This document shows positions 1-5,285 of a stretch of DNA of 5,285 bases, one piece after another. This DNA comes from a virus. Its lineage: Duplodnaviria > Heunggongvirae > Uroviricota > Caudoviricetes. The stretch lies in the IMG/VR virus record IMGVR_UViG_2695420480_000001. The stretch is one strand, 5' to 3'. The position numbers were made by a program, and so were the translations under genes. How positions within the stretch are numbered: position 1 is the first letter of the stretch; each line of letters starts with the position of its first letter. The notes beneath the pieces were generated by a model. It did not search any database, was not told the DNA's origin, and saw only the letters and a program-made list of their open reading frames with translations.

Positions 1-2431
1 CTGAAACGTATTTTGCCTGGTAACGGGCGTCATCAAGTGCATTATGGCGCTCACCTTCGAATGGAATAGCCGTTCTGGCATCGAAGTCTATGGCTTTCCC
101 CAGCTCAACGATTGTGCGTACATCGCGATCGTTGTAGTAACGCCACGGGCAGGGGATCCCCTGCCGTTCGTATGAACGGCGCAAAATCGTGTTGTCGAAG
201 TTGGCTCCATTTCCCCAGACCTGAACAAAAAATTCACCGGAGTTTTCGTCGATAAATTCCCGCAATTGTAACAGTGCATCATCTAACGGGATTTCATCGG
301 TCATAATGGCAGATTGCGCTTCGCGTGATTGCTTAAGCCACCATTTAATGGTGTCCCGATCAATGACTCCGCCAGCAGTTTCCAGATCGATAGTCTTACT
401 AAATTCCGGTCCCATATCTCCGGTTTGCGGATCGAAAAATATTGCACCTATTGAGATGATCGGGGCATCAGGATTTTTTCCCATGGTTTCAAGGTCGATC
501 ATTAGATGGTCACACGTCCTGCTGGTGGATGTGATTTCTTGATGACCGTTCACCTTAATTGAGTGATCTGCCGTCTCGCCAGTTCCATTATCGCTATCGT
601 GATGCTGATTGCCGCCAGTGTTCTCCTTGTGTGGATGTTCAGCGCCTTCCATTTTCTCCGGATCATCTTCCTGAACTTCAACCTGATACTCTTCATCGAA
701 TGTTTCCTGGTATGTTGCGTCGCCCATCACTGCGCCACAATCAGGGCAGTTGCCGCCGCCGGTCTGACCGCAGGCGGTGCAGACTTTTTCCACTTCCTGT
801 TGCGCCACTGGTTCAGGCTGTTTCGTTTCTGGCTCGTTTTGTAACGCATTTGGGCTGTTTTGTTCCGCTTTTTGGTAGTTCCGTTCCGATTCATGCTGGT
901 TCTGGTTTACAGAATCGCGGGTCTGGATCCCCTTAACCCATTTCGGATCATTCGGGTCGCTAATCCCTGCAACAAATTCTCCGCGAGAGGCAGCAAGCAA
1001 CTTATCGGCGTCAGGCTGGCTGATATTGGCTGCCTGCATAATTTTGTTTACTTCGTCAGCGGTAACTTTTACCGGCTCTGGTTGTGCGGTCGTGTCAGAT
1101 GCACCAGTATTTTGTTGTGAACCTGAGTATGTACTGTTTTTGCGGGCGAAATATTCTTCTTTCGTGATTTCAGTAGCCCCGGCAGCCAGTGCCTTATCCA
1201 GACCAGAAAGTTTGTTTGCGCGACCGTATTTTTCGCCATCCTTGTCGGTGAAGAGGAAGTAGAACGGCCCCTCACGCTCTACAGATGGTTCGACTTCCAC
1301 TTTGCATTCGGTTTTTTCGTTGTCCGGAATTGCCGTTTCCACTGCATCAGTTTCTGGTACTGACGACGAGAGAGTATCAGTTGCGCTCTGATTTGTTCCT
1401 TCATCTTCAAACACGCCCTTTGTAGTCAGGTATTCAGTAATGTATTTGTTCAGTGCCACAGGGTCTTTGTGAATGTCGATCGGACGTTCACGGACAAGGC
1501 CAAAAATAGTCTGGCGGTCGTAGCGAAGGGCATCAGGCTGTTTGCGCATTGATGCCGAGATACGCTTCCAGTCTTCGCGGTCGTTGTCGATAACTTCATT
1601 TTTTGCCCAGCGATGGATGCTGCCGTCAATGTTTCCGGCATCCACATCACCAGGCCAGAGAGCGTAGGCCAGTTCGTCATCCAGTGTTTTCCATGTCTGC
1701 TTGTATTCGCGATGAATGGCAGCAATGACCAGGCTGATTTTTCCTGTTGAATTTTCAGTGTGCTGTTGATTGACTCTGGCGCGGGCGAGATCAACAACAG
1801 ACGTGTATTTTCCGGTTTCCTTGCGTTCACCTTCGCGACGTTTTTTCCAGATGCGCATCTCTGCCTGAATTTCGGGCCATTTGGCACCAGGCTTACATTT
1901 ATGCTTAACCCACCCGATGGCATGCAGCTTAAGCTCCGGATACATGGCGTTAACTTCTGGCATTTTCATCAACGCTTCAACGATATGTCCGTTGAATGTT
2001 GCCATGTCTTCCTGCAACAATTCCTGTGCGCTAATAACCATATCAACGGTGATGTTTTCACATGTGTCGAACTTAACCATGAGAGCGTTCTGTACTTCAG
2101 GGGCCAGCTTGTCAAAAGTGACGTTCATCAGATCGGATTCAGTCTCAACCGGGACAAAAGAAGCAGAATCCTCATCCCAGCGGTTTTCCTGCATATATTC
2201 AGCATCCCATGAATCGAGGGCAGGGCGGGGTATGCCAGGTTTATCCTCGCAGATAATAAATTTATAAGCGCAGTCCTGAGCAGCCGGATAATGTTCCAGG
2301 AATTGCCAGTGAAATTTTGCTCGAGCACGGCGTTCGTCGCCAGCTTCAATAGCTGTGGCTACAGCCACAGCGCCTTCTTCCCTTGTTGCCAGTTCGTCAG
2401 GAATGGCGGCGCAAATAAAGACTTTACTCAT
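1..2431 (-). CDS. Exonuclease VIII-like (RecE/YdfE-family) prophage recombination protein with a C-terminal DnaQ-like DEDDh 3'-5' exonuclease domain; 5' end complete, 3' end beyond window start (about 810 codons present)
   Basis: ATG at 2431-2429 (minus) with GAGG 10 nt upstream (revcomp of 2442-2445) and an in-frame TAA just upstream (2440-2438). The frame stays open to position 1; the track omits it because it is edge-truncated, and the listed minus ORFs (88..282, 1069..1275, 1450..1923, 2128..2349) are all in a different frame. Hand translation starts [20 protein letters not shown]. It contains [25 protein letters not shown] and a Cys cluster [16 protein letters not shown] (about 736-783), both of which I recall from Rac RecE (unverified memory). 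The C-terminal part carries DEDDh motifs: DLET (485-496), NGANFD, and HNALDDA (26-46). Codon usage is E. coli-like. Confidence 0.8.
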
Positions 2432-2524
2432 TTTGTTTTAACCTCATGACAGATTTAAGGATGAACAAATCCCTGCCATTGCTGGCATATAAGAATGAAA
2501 CCGGATATTTATTACGGAACTGTT

Positions 2525-2716
2525 TTAAAGACCTGCCGGGATTTCGATATTATCCTGGTGAATAACTTTATCGACCGGGTAACAGTTACCGGGAATTTTC
2601 TGTTCGGTTGCTGCAGTCATACACTCCTGCATTGTCCTGTGAACACTGACTGCAATATCAACTGGCTCTCCGGAAACAAGAAAAACTGTCAGAACAAGTG
2701 CAAATGCTGTATTCAT
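2525..2716 (-). CDS. ydfD: YdfD-like small lysis/membrane protein (63 aa) with N-terminal hydrophobic helix
   Basis: ATG at 2716-2714 overlaps the TGA stop of the upstream gene (ATGA overlap); AGGA lies 8 nt upstream. 63 codons to TAA at 2527-2525. Product: MNTAFALVLTVFLVSGEPVDIAVSVHRTMQECMTAATEQKIPGNCYPVDKVIHQDNIEIPAGL. Size and position (immediately after dicB, before the exonuclease gene) match ydfD of the Qin prophage as I remember it. The track's longer 81-aa version (start 2770) has no RBS. Confidence 0.6.
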   Translation of the reverse strand: MNTAFALVLTVFLVSGEPVDIAVSVHRTMQECMTAATEQKIPGNCYPVDKVIHQDNIEIPAGL

Positions 2717-2901
2717 TGCCAGCATCCTTTTTGTATCGGACGTAAACGGGCCAGCATTGAAAGAATGCATATTTTATTTAATAACTCCCGTTCGTGTTTT
2801 CTCTTGTTAATGGCATCTTCAGTAAATACAGGGTTACTGATAGTGACACCAATTTCAAAACAACCTTCAGACGTATTAACGTTTGGTAATAACGTTTCCA
2901 T
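2713..2901 (-). CDS. dicB: DicB, prophage-encoded cell-division inhibitor (62 aa)
   Basis: ATG at 2901-2899 with GAGGA 7 nt upstream (revcomp of 2909-2913); 62 codons to TGA at 2715-2713. Product: METLLPNVNTSEGCFEIGVTISNPVFTEDAINKRKHERELLNKICILSMLARLRPIQKGCWQ, which I recognise as DicB (62 aa, N-terminus METLLPNVNTSEGCFEIGV). The track's 97-aa ORF 2713..3006 is the same frame extended to an upstream GTG without an RBS. Confidence 0.85.
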   Translation of the reverse strand: METLLPNVNTSEGCFEIGVTISNPVFTEDAINKRKHERELLNKICILSMLARLRPIQKGCWQ

Positions 2902-2937
2902 TATCGCGTCCTCAACAATGAATTTTGTGATGCGGTG

Positions 2938-2977
2938 CCTGGTGCCTCCAGGTGACGTTAACCAGTTAACAATTAAC
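2938..2977 (-). repeat. Structured element in the dicF-dicB spacer: CCTGG-N5-CCAGG inverted repeat (2938-2952) next to three TTAAC direct repeats (2958-2962, 2966-2970, 2973-2977)
   Basis: Direct reading: cctggtgcctccagg, then gttaaccagttaacaattaac. It lies 40-75 nt upstream of the dicB start codon, in the transcribed spacer. Function unknown (RNA leader structure or protein-binding site). Confidence 0.3.
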
Positions 2978-3070
2978 GCCGGATACAGAGAATCCACCCA
3001 TAACACTGTTTTTGGTTTTAACTGTTCCGCGTGCGCTGAGCCGCATTCACCGCATCACAAAATTCACTTT

Positions 3071-3113
3071 AAAAAGGGCGGCAGAGCAGCCACGGAGTAA
3101 AACTGATACCGCC
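3071..3113 (-). terminator. DicF 3' stem-loop / intrinsic terminator (GGCGG..CAGU / GCUG..CCGCC then U5)
   Basis: On the minus strand, GGCGG (revcomp of 3109-3113) pairs with CCGCC (revcomp of 3077-3081), with an inner CAGU/GCUG helix, followed by UUUUU (revcomp of 3071-3075). dicB lies downstream, so read-through must occur. Confidence 0.5.
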
Positions 3114-3128
3114 AAACGTCACCAGAAA
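3074..3128 (-). ncRNA. dicF: DicF small regulatory RNA (ftsZ-targeting sRNA of the dicB operon)
   Basis: Revcomp of 3071..3128 reads UUUCUGGUGACGUUUGGCGGUAUCAGUUUUACUCCGUGGCUGCUCUGCCGCCCUUUUU. This matches the roughly 53-nt DicF sequence as I remember it, apart from one position (GUGGCUG here, GUGACUG recalled). It ends in a GC-rich interrupted stem plus a U-run, and lies directly upstream of dicB on the same strand as in Qin. The exact ends are not determinable from sequence. Confidence 0.8.
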
Positions 3129-3190: not shown

Positions 3191-3627
3191 GATGTCCTCA
3201 ACGGGGAAGGAATAACCCCGCCATACTTACCGCCGCGCCATTTCGCGGAGTGCCACAACCGGAAGCGCACGGTCGACGAAAATTTAACGACAGGTTATCT
3301 ATGAACCAGCTACCTCGCCGTGCGCTTTCGCGTTATGGTCTGACTTTTCATGGAAATATCCTTTCAGTAAACTGTCAGTGCCGGATGCTCACCCGTGTCC
3401 GGCGCACGCACTCCACCTCACCCGTGGAGAACTCCTTAATTACCAACCTTAGCTTCGTTGGTTAGCTATTAACGCGGGTAAAAGAGGATGACCCACGTAA
3501 TCAGGTTAATTTTCTTTATGAGCCATCGGAAAGACCATATTGTCATCACGCCTCTGTCCGGGTTGACGAAAAAGAGCGTCAGGTCCGCTGTAAAATCTGC
3601 GGTGCAGTTGTGGAGCCATTTGACTGG

Positions 3628-3786
3628 ATGCTCTCTGTGGCGAAAAGAGAAACCAGACTGGCAGATGATGTAAGGCTCTTGCGCCAGGAGGAACGGGAAA
3701 GGCGGAGAAATATAGAAAAGCTAATTCAGATTGAGCGTAACGCGAAAGCGCGGATACGCAGGGCGGCAAAATCAAGAACTGAATAA
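3628..3786 (+). CDS. Hypothetical small basic/charged helical protein (52 aa from ATG 3628, or 58 aa from GTG 3610); start uncertain, possibly a 5'-truncated remnant
   Basis: The frame is open from 3466 to TAA at 3784-3786. The C-terminal part MLSVAKRETRLADDVRLLRQEERERRRNIEKLIQIERNAKARIRRAAKSRTE looks protein-like (charged, coiled-coil-like). Upstream in the same frame is a Cys/His cluster (PYCHHASV...RCKICG) but no canonical start. The only RBS-like site for ATG 3628 is GGAG 12 nt upstream (weak). It is below the track's length cutoff, and the overlapping track ORF 3488..3673 is in another frame. Confidence 0.3.
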   Translation: MLSVAKRETRLADDVRLLRQEERERRRNIEKLIQIERNAKARIRRAAKSRTE

Positions 3787-3865: not shown

Positions 3866-4147
3866 ATGGCGGTACTGCGTAATCAGCCTGCGCTGTACGC
3901 GTTTACGTCAGAAATTAATGCGATTAGCGCAACCATTATCGGTCAGCTGGATACGAACTTTAAAACTGGTCGTCGTGCGGCGTTACGTGAGATCGAGGAT
4001 GTGAAACACGATACGCGTGAAGCGGAAGATGTGCTGGATGTGGCGGTGGCCATTGCGGAGGCAGACGGCGAAATTGAGCCGGAAGAGCGCAAGGTGCTGG
4101 AAGAGATTGCCGGTGTTCTGGGTCTTCGTCTGGAGAATTACCTGTGA
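3866..4147 (+). CDS. TerB-like (tellurite-resistance TerB / DjlA-N-type fold) small acidic protein, 93 aa
   Basis: ATG 3866 with AGGAGG at 3851-3856 (9-nt spacer); 93 codons to TGA 4145-4147; strong E. coli codon bias (ctg, gcg, cgt). Product: MAVLRNQPALYAFTSEINAISATIIGQLDTNFKTGRRAALREIEDVKHDTREAEDVLDVAVAIAEADGEIEPEERKVLEEIAGVLGLRLENYL. The C-terminal motif AEADGEIEPEERKVLEEIAGVLGL resembles the TerB-family signature (ADG..E..L..LGL) as I remember it; no search was run. Confidence 0.8.
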   Translation: MAVLRNQPALYAFTSEINAISATIIGQLDTNFKTGRRAALREIEDVKHDTREAEDVLDVAVAIAEADGEIEPEERKVLEEIAGVLGLRLENYL

Positions 4148-4311
4148 CGGTAAAACTGCGCCTGACTGTGGCTGCACTCCTGCTGTTTCTGGTGGTGATG
4201 GTGGATTTCACCAGCAGAATCATGTCGGTGCTGGCGGATGGGGTGCTGGTCTGCGGCATTATGGTATTGCTGTGGCCGGTGATAAAAAGAAACAGCCTGC
4301 ATAATGCTTGA
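4144..4311 (+). CDS. Small two-helix membrane protein (55 aa), translationally coupled to the TerB-like gene
   Basis: GTG 4144-4146 overlaps the upstream TGA (GTGA overlap) with GGAG 8 nt upstream (4132-4135). 55 codons to TGA 4309-4311. Product: MTVKLRLTVAALLLFLVVMVDFTSRIMSVLADGVLVCGIMVLLWPVIKRNSLHNA, with two hydrophobic segments and a basic C-terminus. The alternative ATG start at codon 19 would give 37 aa. The track's 4017..4304 ORF is an off-frame shadow. Confidence 0.6.
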   Translation: MTVKLRLTVAALLLFLVVMVDFTSRIMSVLADGVLVCGIMVLLWPVIKRNSLHNA

Positions 4312-4512
4312 TTTTTTTGTTTGCTGTTTATTAAAAACACTTCTGCATGGTGAATCCCCCTGTGCGGTGGGGCAATCAGCAAGAAGGAATATGGGGTAAT
4401 CGCGGATTCAGGTGCTGATACTGAATTCACCGGGAGGCACCCGGCACCATGCTTTGCCACAAAAGTGTTATTTCTGTTTTTCTCAAACTATCATCGTTAT
4501 CCCTTTATTTTC

Positions 4513-4539
4513 GGCTGCGCATGGCGCGGCCTTTTTTTT
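4513..4539 (+). terminator. Rho-independent terminator (8-bp stem GGCUGCGC/GCGCGGCC with one U-G pair, then T8)
   Basis: ggctgcgc atg gcgcggcc followed by tttttttt (4532-4539). The T-run is only on the plus strand, so it is unidirectional. Confidence 0.65.
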
Positions 4540-4634
4540 ACGACCAGCCACTGGCAGATGGTCATCCTGTGATTTGATTCCGCTTCCGGCTTTTTAACTC
4601 TGTTCCTCTAGCCAGGTAACACAGTGTTATGACA

Positions 4635-4660
4635 GCCCGCCGATTCAGGCGGGCTTTTTT
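4635..4660 (+). terminator. Rho-independent terminator (7-bp GC stem GCCCGCC/GGCGGGC, 6-nt loop, T6)
   Basis: gcccgcc gattca ggcgggc tttttt, ending 11 nt before the stf ATG at 4672. Confidence 0.7.
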
Positions 4661-4671
4661 GTGGGGTGAAT

Positions 4672-5285
4672 ATGGCAGTAAAGATTTCAGGTGTGCTGAA
4701 AGACGGCACAGGAAAACCGGTAGAGAACTGCACCATTCAACTGAAAGCCAGACGGACCAGCAGCACGGTGGTGGTGAACACGGTGGCCTCTGAAAATCCG
4801 GATGAAGCCGGTCGTTACAGCATGGACGTTGAGTACGGTCAGTACAGCGTCATTCTGTTGGTGGAAGGATTCCCGCCGTCACATGCCGGGACCATCACCG
4901 TGTATGAAGATTCTCAACCCGGTACGCTGAATGATTTTCTCGGTGCCATGTCGGAGGATGACGTCCGGCCGGAGGCACTGCGTCGTTTTGAACTGATGGT
5001 GGAAGAAGCGGCGCGTCACGCTGAGGAGGCGAAGAAGAATGCCGGAGAGGCGGAGACGTCCGCGAGGAATGCCGGCATATCAGCCAGTCAGGCGGAAGCG
5101 AGCGCGGCAAATGCTGACACTTCAGCAGGGGAGGCATCGGAGTCAGCCCGGCAGGCGGCAGAAAGTGCAGCCGCTGCAAAGAAGTCAGAGGAAGCGTCCT
5201 CGTCCTCGGCCTCTGAGGCCGCTCAAAAAGCCAGTGAGTCATTACAAAGTGCAGCAGATGCTGAGTTGTCAAAAAAGACGGCAGA
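4672..5285 (+). CDS. stf: Side tail fibre protein Stf, N-terminal part (204 codons; continues beyond window end)
   Basis: ATG 4672; product MAVKISGVLKDGTGKPVENCTIQLKARRTSSTVVVNTVASENPDEAGRYSMDVEYGQYSVILLVEGFPPSHAGTITVYEDSQPGTLNDFL..., which is the conserved N-terminus of lambda/Rac/Qin Stf-family side tail fibres (recognised from memory). It is followed by an Ala/Ser/Glu-rich low-complexity shaft region. No stop occurs before the window end; the antisense track ORF 4895..5272 is a shadow. Confidence 0.9.
   Translation, partial: MAVKISGVLKDGTGKPVENCTIQLKARRTSSTVVVNTVASENPDEAGRYSMDVEYGQYSVILLVEGFPPSHAGTITVYEDSQPGTLNDFLGAMSEDDVRPEALRRFELMVEEAARHAEEAKKNAGEAETSARNAGISASQAEASAANADTSAGEASESARQAAESAAAAKKSEEASSSSASEAAQKASESLQSAADAELSKKTA

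Follow-up and report, generated by a model that had tools for sequence, protein, structure and literature searches.

The window analysed here, the whole 5,285-nucleotide stretch of IMG/VR virus record IMGVR_UViG_2695420480_000001, carries two strong intrinsic terminators in tandem, T1 and T2, immediately upstream of stf, the gene coding for the side tail fibre. The pair very probably consists of two separately evolved lambdoid terminators brought together by a deletion or by illegitimate recombination, an event that most likely left stf silent. T1 terminates a small RNA (sRNA) gene related to STnc100, PasD and EcOnc13, and T2 corresponds to the terminator found between lom and stf in phage lambda. 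Neither element is new: the curated record of phage 434 (OL657226.1) already lists a homologue of each as a terminator. The features of the region are the following:

4308 to 4337, + strand: candidate sigma-70 promoter of the sRNA gene (TTGATT-N18-TAAAAA, 7 nt to G4345)
4345 to 4539, + strand: sRNA gene of the STnc100/PasD/EcOnc13 family, about 195 nt (Rfam RF02076; ends placed by alignment with PasD2)
4513 to 4531, + strand, with U8 at 4532 to 4539: stem of T1, intrinsic terminator of the sRNA and probable Hfq-binding 3' module
4540 to 4608, + strand: remnant of the leader of nanS-p (SASA esterase), recognized by homology to intact phages
4609 to 4610: novel joint with a 2-nt TA overlap, where the nanS-p leader meets the lom-stf intergenic region
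4634 to 4655, + strand, with the U-run extending to 4660: stem of T2, lambda-type lom-stf intergenic terminator
4663 to 4669, + strand: Shine-Dalgarno sequence of stf, GGGGUGA, identified by pairing with the 3' end of 16S rRNA; the phage 434 record annotates a ribosome-binding site (RBS) at the equivalent position
4672 to 5285, + strand: N-terminal 204 codons of stf (PF08400, 233 bits; phrog_3279), running off the end of the contig

Identity of T1 and T2

T1 is made up of GGCUGCGC-AUG-GCGCGGCC, an 8-bp stem (seven G-C pairs and one G-U pair) closed by a 3-nt loop, and is followed by U8. T2 reads AGCCCGCC-GAUUCA-GGCGGGCU, with 8 bp (seven G-C) and a 6-nt loop, and is separated from the stf start codon (ATG, 4672 to 4674) by the 11 nt GTGGGGTGAAT (4661 to 4671). 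Both possess the G+C-rich stem of about 5 to 14 bp, the loop of 3 to 8 nt and the 3' U-tract of intrinsic terminators. Hairpin energies amount to -15.4 kcal/mol for T1 (z = -4.0) and -18.2 kcal/mol for T2 (z = -4.6), and none of 200 shuffled sequences was as stable in either case. A scan for consensus terminators, which over the whole window revealed no enrichment (9 sites versus 6.7 +/- 2.7 expected), placed T1 and T2 first, with 7 G-C pairs out of 8 in both stems. A stricter test, accepting only hairpins of -14 kcal/mol or lower that directly abut at least five T and using 300 dinucleotide-preserving shuffles as a control, returned T1 and T2, on the + strand in both cases, and nothing else; the shuffles contained on average 0.03 sites per window, and site pairs less than 200 nt apart in 0 of 300. 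T1 and T2 are confirmed as the only two strong intrinsic terminators of the window. The original prediction, an earlier reading of these letters, had rightly pointed out the tandem pair and the 11 nt that separate the second terminator from stf; it missed that T1 terminates an sRNA of the STnc100/PasD family and that T2 is the lom-stf terminator of lambda.

The sequence upstream of T1 matches the Rfam STnc100 model (RF02076) with 100.8 bits (E = 7e-22) over 4316 to 4488, well above the gathering score of 47, and hence belongs to this family by covariance-model score. The terminator hairpin of the model itself (positions ~170 to 197) is left unaligned in the window, and the PasD/EcOnc13-type hairpin of T1 (4513 to 4531) stands in for it 25 nt further on. 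This type of hairpin is known from two prophage-borne sRNAs. PasD2 of enteropathogenic Escherichia coli (EPEC) E2348/69 (NC_011601, 741157 to 741328; Pearl Mizrahi et al., PMC8550237, Table S6) has GCAUGGUGAAUCC at its 5' end, and its last nucleotide is the final U of GGCUGCGCAUUGCGCAGCC-U8, a hairpin that is the homologue of T1. EcOnc13 of enterohemorrhagic E. coli (EHEC) Sakai was detected as an Hfq peak at 901332 to 901382 by UV cross-linking and analysis of cDNA (CRAC) and as a northern band of ~187 nt (Tree et al., PMC4104026, Table S2); the CRAC peak lies over the U-rich stretch and extends across the 5' arm of the prophage Sp3 hairpin, which is identical to T1. For both PasD2 and EcOnc13, the Rfam alignment extends through the T1-type hairpin as the terminal stem of the model. 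The window displays the same terminator arrangement, GGCUGCGC-loop-GCGCRGCC followed by U8 and lying ahead of the nanS-p leader, and its hairpin is identical to that of EcOnc13 in Sakai Sp3 and 2 nt off that of PasD2. The homologue in phage 434 is annotated as 'terminator' (43343 to 43371).

The PasD seed UGUGAG, complementary to the CUCACA target motif, is absent from its expected place in the window, where the sequence is CCCUUUAUUUUC; UUUAUUUUC is found instead, just upstream of the hairpin. The window RNA is therefore a relative of PasD rather than an orthologue. As judged from these alignments, it is a hybrid composed of an STnc100-type body and a PasD/EcOnc13-type 3' end. PasD and STnc100 have been concluded to derive from a shared ancestor (Zhu, Shabalina and Storz, bioRxiv 10.64898/2026.05.13.724894). 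Its U-rich stretch, GC hairpin and U8 tail would together form the 3' end through which sRNAs of this kind usually bind Hfq, and published data on the homologues of T1 locate there both the end of the RNA and the contact with Hfq. T1 is the terminator of the sRNA and probably also its Hfq-binding 3' end.

The promoter at 4308 to 4337 is a plausible candidate for transcription of the sRNA, given that its E2348/69 counterpart reads TTGACT-N18-TAAAAA-N7-G, in which the G is the published 5' end of PasD2. Moreover, quantitative PCR primers published for STnc_100 of Shiga toxin-producing E. coli (STEC; PMC12370729) match the window exactly at 4346 to 4365 and 4419 to 4438. In strain EDL933, 11 STnc100 copies are transcribed in uninduced culture, one of which was confirmed by northern blotting.

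Additional observations concern this part of the window. In Sakai Sp5 (locus L093, ~2709 to 2733), a T1-type hairpin with arms GGCTGCGC/GCGCGGCC, loop AACT and T5 lies ~100 nt upstream of the nanS-p homologue ECs1207, and is distinct from both the STnc100 terminator proper and the convergent AsxR. The T1-type hairpin thus looks like a fixed feature ahead of nanS-p, whichever sRNA comes before it. Two small open reading frames (ORFs) on the + strand, 4412 to 4597 (61 aa) and 4449 to 4577 (42 aa), cross the 3' part of the sRNA and T1. In phage 434, an annotated putative membrane protein overlaps the PasD-type RNA and its terminator, with a PasD-type sequence unlike that of the window, and ribosome profiling of EDL933 revealed appreciable ribosome coverage on some STnc100 copies. 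An AsxR/AgvB-type RNA converging through T1 on the minus strand was considered and rejected, as no Rfam match at E <= 1 and no U-tract were found there. The sub-threshold Rfam matches over the region, asX2 (25 bits versus a gathering score of 70) and anti-hemB (18.2 bits, E = 0.93, versus 49.5), are attributed to chance.

Sequence comparison identifies T2 as the native lom-stf intergenic terminator of phage lambda. From 4609 on, the window aligns base for base with lambda 19587 to 19650. In lambda, the stop codon of lom is followed by TAGCCAGGTAACACAGTGTTATGACAGCCCGCC...GGGCTTTTTTGTGGGGTGAATATG, then by the same 11-nt spacer and start codon as in the window, and phage 434 aligns here with the same sequence as lambda. 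Comparison was extended to 80 IMG/VR loci coding for close relatives of Stf. Homology to the window begins exactly at 4609 in 74 of the 82 loci compared, and in 76 of 80 the hairpin is flanked by stf and by a Lom homologue whose end lies 62 to 69 nt from the ATG of stf. T2 is found in lambda, in 434 and in nearly all of the ~80 IMG/VR loci; the spacing of 11 nt is shared by lambda, 434 and four other loci, and differs by at most 1 nt in the remainder. A terminator 11 nt before stf is therefore a standard feature of lambda. Across 14 sequence variants, 97.3% of the cells of the T2 helix are paired, with one-sided changes only (G-C to G-U), so the helix is supported by conservation rather than by covariation. 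The phage 434 record annotates a 'terminator' at 19615 to 19642 and an RBS at 19643 to 19646, followed by the side tail fibre gene, as well as another terminator between J and lom. The spacer and hairpin of the window are homologous from 2 nt past the position of the lom stop codon, but lom itself, which would mark T2 as the terminator of the lom moron, is deleted. The window-borne part of stf is 100% identical to the IMG/VR loci L008 and L009, whereas its identity to lambda is 89.6%.

The joint between the two terminators

Upstream of the joint, the window belongs to a different context. Positions 3871 to 4610 recur with 100% identity in many STEC prophages, in which the gene order is Q, tRNAs, tciA (TerB), tciB (DUF3927), sRNA, SASA/NanS-p esterase and holin; phages 434 and JLK-2012 have the same layout. 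The leader at 4540 to 4608 is nearly invariant in E2348/69, 434, JLK-2012 and E2865, where it runs on into CACGGGAGAAATTCGATG, which comprises the RBS and start of nanS-p. In the window, homology to this context stops at 4610 and the lambda-type lom-stf homology starts at 4609. Nothing from the nanS-p RBS through the lom stop codon remains, the lysis, terminase, head and tail genes being gone. T1 and T2 are adjacent because the joint at 4609/4610 took out the stretch from nanS-p to lom. An insertion or junction at about this point had been suspected from the arrangement of the terminators, and it is now mapped as a recombination joint. A further joint, at 3871 to 3874, removed the 5' end of tciA, which begins 152 nt earlier in STEC prophages, together with the preceding DNA, which in relatives contains Q, pR' and tRNAs. 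The tblastn searches of the window for remnants of Q (five proteins), NanS-p and Lom returned nothing significant.

A 32-mer spanning the joint at 4609/4610 has no match in genome, metagenome and viral collections, and none of 5,426 complete E. coli genomes spans it. An exact match of the 93-aa junction-spanning TciA' protein identified the window as the whole contig CXZE01000052.1 of GCA_001277415.1. Identical joints (100%) occur in GCA_001277415.1 and in the independently assembled runs DRR567785, ERR13952733 and DRR567778; in SRR28811060 the left joint is present, and the contig stops short of the right one. Presence of the joint in four independent assemblies indicates that it is natural and not an assembly artefact. 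In addition, the contigs of ERR13952733 and SRR28811060 (Logan, L090 and L092) lack a deletion that the window bears at 3477 to 3480, from which it follows that the T1/T2 joint was inherited in at least two sublineages. The tandem arrangement is the deletion scar of a small lineage. A comparable event was observed in E. coli STECUZB006 (L004, 4849 to 5935), in which lom-stf follows directly on the 5' part of tciA; Q and a tRNA are kept on the upstream side, and nleH on the downstream side. It thus appears to be a recurrent event that phages lose the lysis and morphogenesis genes lying between the cargo region downstream of Q and the tail-fibre region.

Expression of stf and competing explanations

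The whole lambda late transcript needs Q, and Q-modified RNA polymerase reads through terminators. Morons, in turn, by definition bring their own promoter and terminator (PMC3594210). In intact Stx-type phages, the sRNA gene lies after the tciA-tciB (or stx) cargo and before the nanS-p and lysis genes, downstream of Q and pR'. T1 would end a self-contained sRNA gene with its own promoter near 4308 to 4337, and T2 would keep the transcription of lom in the lysogen out of the tail-fibre genes; during lytic growth, Q-modified RNA polymerase coming from pR' would pass both. At 4609/4610 the whole stretch beginning with the nanS-p RBS and closing with the lom stop codon would have been lost, and at 3871 to 3874 Q, pR' and the 5' end of tciA. 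In the resulting remnant, T1 would still end the sRNA and T2 would be a leftover second barrier, ahead of an stf gene endowed with a good RBS, devoid of a promoter and of any source of antitermination in cis, and reached at most by traces of read-through.

The original prediction had stated that no room was left for an stf promoter between the terminator and the ATG, that the RBS (GGGG) was weak, and that stf must consequently depend on antitermination from a distant late promoter or be silent. Two promoter scans agree with the first statement, since no promoter-like site of at least 8/12 was found in 4540 to 4671, which includes the interval from 4540 to 4634. An extended -10-like sequence, TGtTATGAC at 4625, was rejected as a promoter of stf, as transcription would start inside T2. 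The second statement is contradicted: the duplex of GGGGUGA (4663 to 4669) with the 3' end of 16S rRNA reaches -10.6 kcal/mol, compared with -13.0 for the canonical AGGAGGU, ranks within the top 2.4% of the 20-mers of the window, and is identical to the stf RBS of lambda. With respect to the third, antitermination describes the intact relatives, in which both terminators lie inside a Q-antiterminated late operon; a distant late promoter is unlikely here. Neither Q nor pR'/qut is present in cis on the same strand within 4.6 kb upstream, a stretch occupied by a leftward early operon and deletion scars, which makes silence the likelier of the two alternatives. Lacking a promoter of its own, and with no Q gene or late promoter upstream, stf would in all likelihood not be transcribed beyond traces of read-through. 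The proposed insulation of the upstream cassette was also borne out, in that both terminators are the 3' edges of autonomous moron-type units.

Several points weigh against the deletion-scar explanation or restrict its reach. Termination at T1 and T2, its efficiency at this locus and the silence of stf in this strain are predictions from sequence. For the lambda lom-stf hairpin, the literature searched contained no measurement of termination and treated morons and the late transcript in general terms, so that the status of T2 as a terminator relies on sequence features, conservation and database annotation. Compensatory covariation was not found in T2 among the 14 variants, which are too similar for this test to be informative. 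The candidate promoter of the sRNA, whose spacer is 18 nt long, matches the consensus at 4/6 and 4/6 positions, and it is anchored on a 5' end of PasD2 estimated from RNA-seq coverage. The window is a whole 5,285-bp contig (CXZE01000052.1), beyond the ends of which no context is available; since both ends fall in multi-copy prophage genes (exonuclease and stf), the extent of the prophage and its integration site are not readable from it, and the left context (xis, int, ompW) is deduced from a 97.6%-identical prophage of another strain. Finally, the joint may predate the decay: both of its endpoints are neatly intergenic, as if, in a functional phage, a cassette had replaced lom between J and stf.

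In this last scenario, which we regard as unlikely, the tandem pair would have been functional in a working phage, with Q-modified polymerase crossing both terminators to express stf, and the early region would have been deleted later. The joint lies ~5 nt before the nanS-p Shine-Dalgarno sequence and 1 to 2 nt after the lom stop codon, a pattern typical of selected mosaic joints; both terminators and the stf RBS are intact, and the joint is older than the deletion at 3477 to 3480. Nevertheless, no genome, phage or viral contig was found with the joint beside J or with an intact tciA, tciA is truncated in every contig that carries the joint, and the similar independent deletion in STECUZB006 indicates that such events recur. 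More improbable is the idea that T1 and T2 act as an attenuator, whose leakiness would allow stf to be expressed at a low level in the lysogen from the sRNA promoter or from one further upstream. The good RBS of stf (-10.6 kcal/mol), the activity of STnc100-family promoters in uninduced cells and the general knowledge that intrinsic terminators are rarely 100% efficient would be consistent with it, but two strong canonical terminators in series would have to be crossed, a side tail fibre has no known role when the rest of the virion is absent, and the truncation of tciA together with the neighbouring frameshifted ORF is indicative of decay. Along the same line, and with an equally slight chance of being correct, leakage at T1 could generate a ~316-nt STnc100 isoform (4345 to 4660), and further leakage could place stf and tfa under an sRNA promoter active in the lysogen. 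If so, the nanS-p leader and the 3' untranslated region of lom would be part of this isoform, which would have a second hairpin/U-tail module at T2, and a tail-fibre gene would, through the deletion, have become expressed independently of the prophage.

There is very little reason to believe that the interval between the terminators (4540 to 4660) is an sRNA gene in its own right, ended by T2. The hairpin and U-run of T2, the strong conservation of the 69-nt leader among phages and the weak anti-hemB match (18.2 bits, E = 0.93) speak for it; yet the interval contains no promoter-like site of at least 8/12, its only extended -10-like site would initiate inside T2, its fold is unremarkable (z = -1.6), the anti-hemB match is far below the gathering score of 49.5, AsxR/AgvB was not detected, and its two halves come from different loci joined only in this lineage. 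Still more remote is an assembly chimera of a short draft contig. Such an error would be compatible with a window that is an entire 5.3-kb contig lying between multi-copy prophage genes, and with a joint missing from the 5,426 complete E. coli genomes, but not with the identical joint in DRR567785, ERR13952733, DRR567778 and GCA_001277415.1, nor with joint overlaps of 2 to 4 nt, far too short for assembler mis-joins. Juxtaposition of two pre-existing terminators by deletion or illegitimate recombination remains the explanation we favour.

Upstream remnants and comparison with known systems

Upstream of the sRNA gene lie the two genes of the Q-downstream cassette:

3866 to 4147, + strand: tciA, a moron gene of the TerB family, truncated at its 5' end (PF05099 TerB; phrog_632, positions 53 to 143 of 143)
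4144 to 4311, + strand: tciB (DUF3927), second gene of the cassette (PF13064, 60 bits; phrog_1470, 'TciB-like')

The first ~52 codons of tciA are lost, and the left joint provides a new in-frame ATG at 3866 behind GGAGG, so that a truncated TciA' protein of 93 aa is still predicted. Bases 1 to 3127 correspond to a leftward early operon encoding a 3'-5' exonuclease, ydfD (DUF1482), dicB and the DicF RNA. At the joint of 3477 to 3480, 1.75 kb (ydaT'/helix-turn-helix/DUF977) are missing relative to the ompW-site prophage of E. coli FDAARGOS_1248; beside this scar, a phrog_1621 ORF (3430 to 3786) is shortened to 58 codons.

The early operon harbours a second STnc100-type element. DicF (75 bits, 3127 to 3076, - strand) is followed by a divergent STnc100-like fold (3078 to 2869, - strand) overlapping the start of dicB, which at 37.7 bits is below the gathering score of 47. 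The same arrangement exists in the Qin prophage of E. coli K-12 (L096), with DicF at 1084 to 1135 and the STnc100-like element at 1133 to 1342 (34.4 bits). The two copies of the window differ by compensatory changes in both their closing helix (GCAUGGUG/CACCAUGC versus GAUGCGGUG/CACCGCAUC) and their inner hairpin (CCGGG/CCCGG versus CCUGG/CCAGG), which suggests that the dicF-dicB spacer holds a conserved structured module.

In itself, the tandem pair is a finding of little weight, as neither element is new and the arrangement is ordinary. It illustrates cleanly how regulatory elements that lie far apart in a phage genome come to be stacked as a prophage decays, and it is a reminder that a conspicuous tandem terminator ahead of a gene may have been left by a deletion and need not be a control element by design. 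STnc100/PasD-type sRNA genes and their terminators persist as intact units after the loss of Q and of the lysis and morphogenesis genes. Their survival in such remnants is in line with the idea that these sRNAs are kept because the host profits from them.

The sRNA that T1 ends combines features of two known groups. PasD1 and PasD2 of EPEC E2348/69 and EcOnc13 of EHEC Sakai Sp3 are Hfq-dependent prophage sRNAs with the same type of hairpin and U8 tail. The window RNA resembles them in its GCAUGGUGAAUCC start at the 5' end, its site between tciB/DUF3927 and the nanS-p leader and the layout of its promoter, and departs from them in its body, which scores as STnc100 type (100.8 bits) and not as PasD type (~40 bits). 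Conversely, it matches the STnc100 family (RF02076), to which EcOnc27 of the Stx2 phage Sp5 also belongs, over its 5' two-thirds, including the closing helix and the CCGGG/CCCGG hairpin, but lacks both the usual terminator of this family (AAGGCCYCUC...GGGGCCUUUUU) and a convergent AsxR/AgvB partner.

T2 shares with the terminator located between lom and stf (orf-401) of lambda the arms GCCCGCC/GGCGGGC, the U-run, the GTGGGGTGAAT spacer and the ATG. It differs in the absence of lom and slightly in its loop and upper stem, with GAUUCA in the window and a longer stem with a G-U pair in lambda. In the moron-bearing, Q-dependent late operon of lambdoid phages (pR'-qut-tR'), each of the two terminators closes the 3' side of a unit that lies inside the late operon and yet is expressible from a repressed prophage, whereas the locus of the window has lost Q, pR'/qut and the late genes between the terminators. 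Finally, tandem insulators such as rrnB T1-T2 likewise consist of two strong intrinsic terminators on one strand, here ~120 nt apart; unlike in rrnB, the pairing in the window is a by-product of deletion, confined to one small lineage and neither conserved nor selected.

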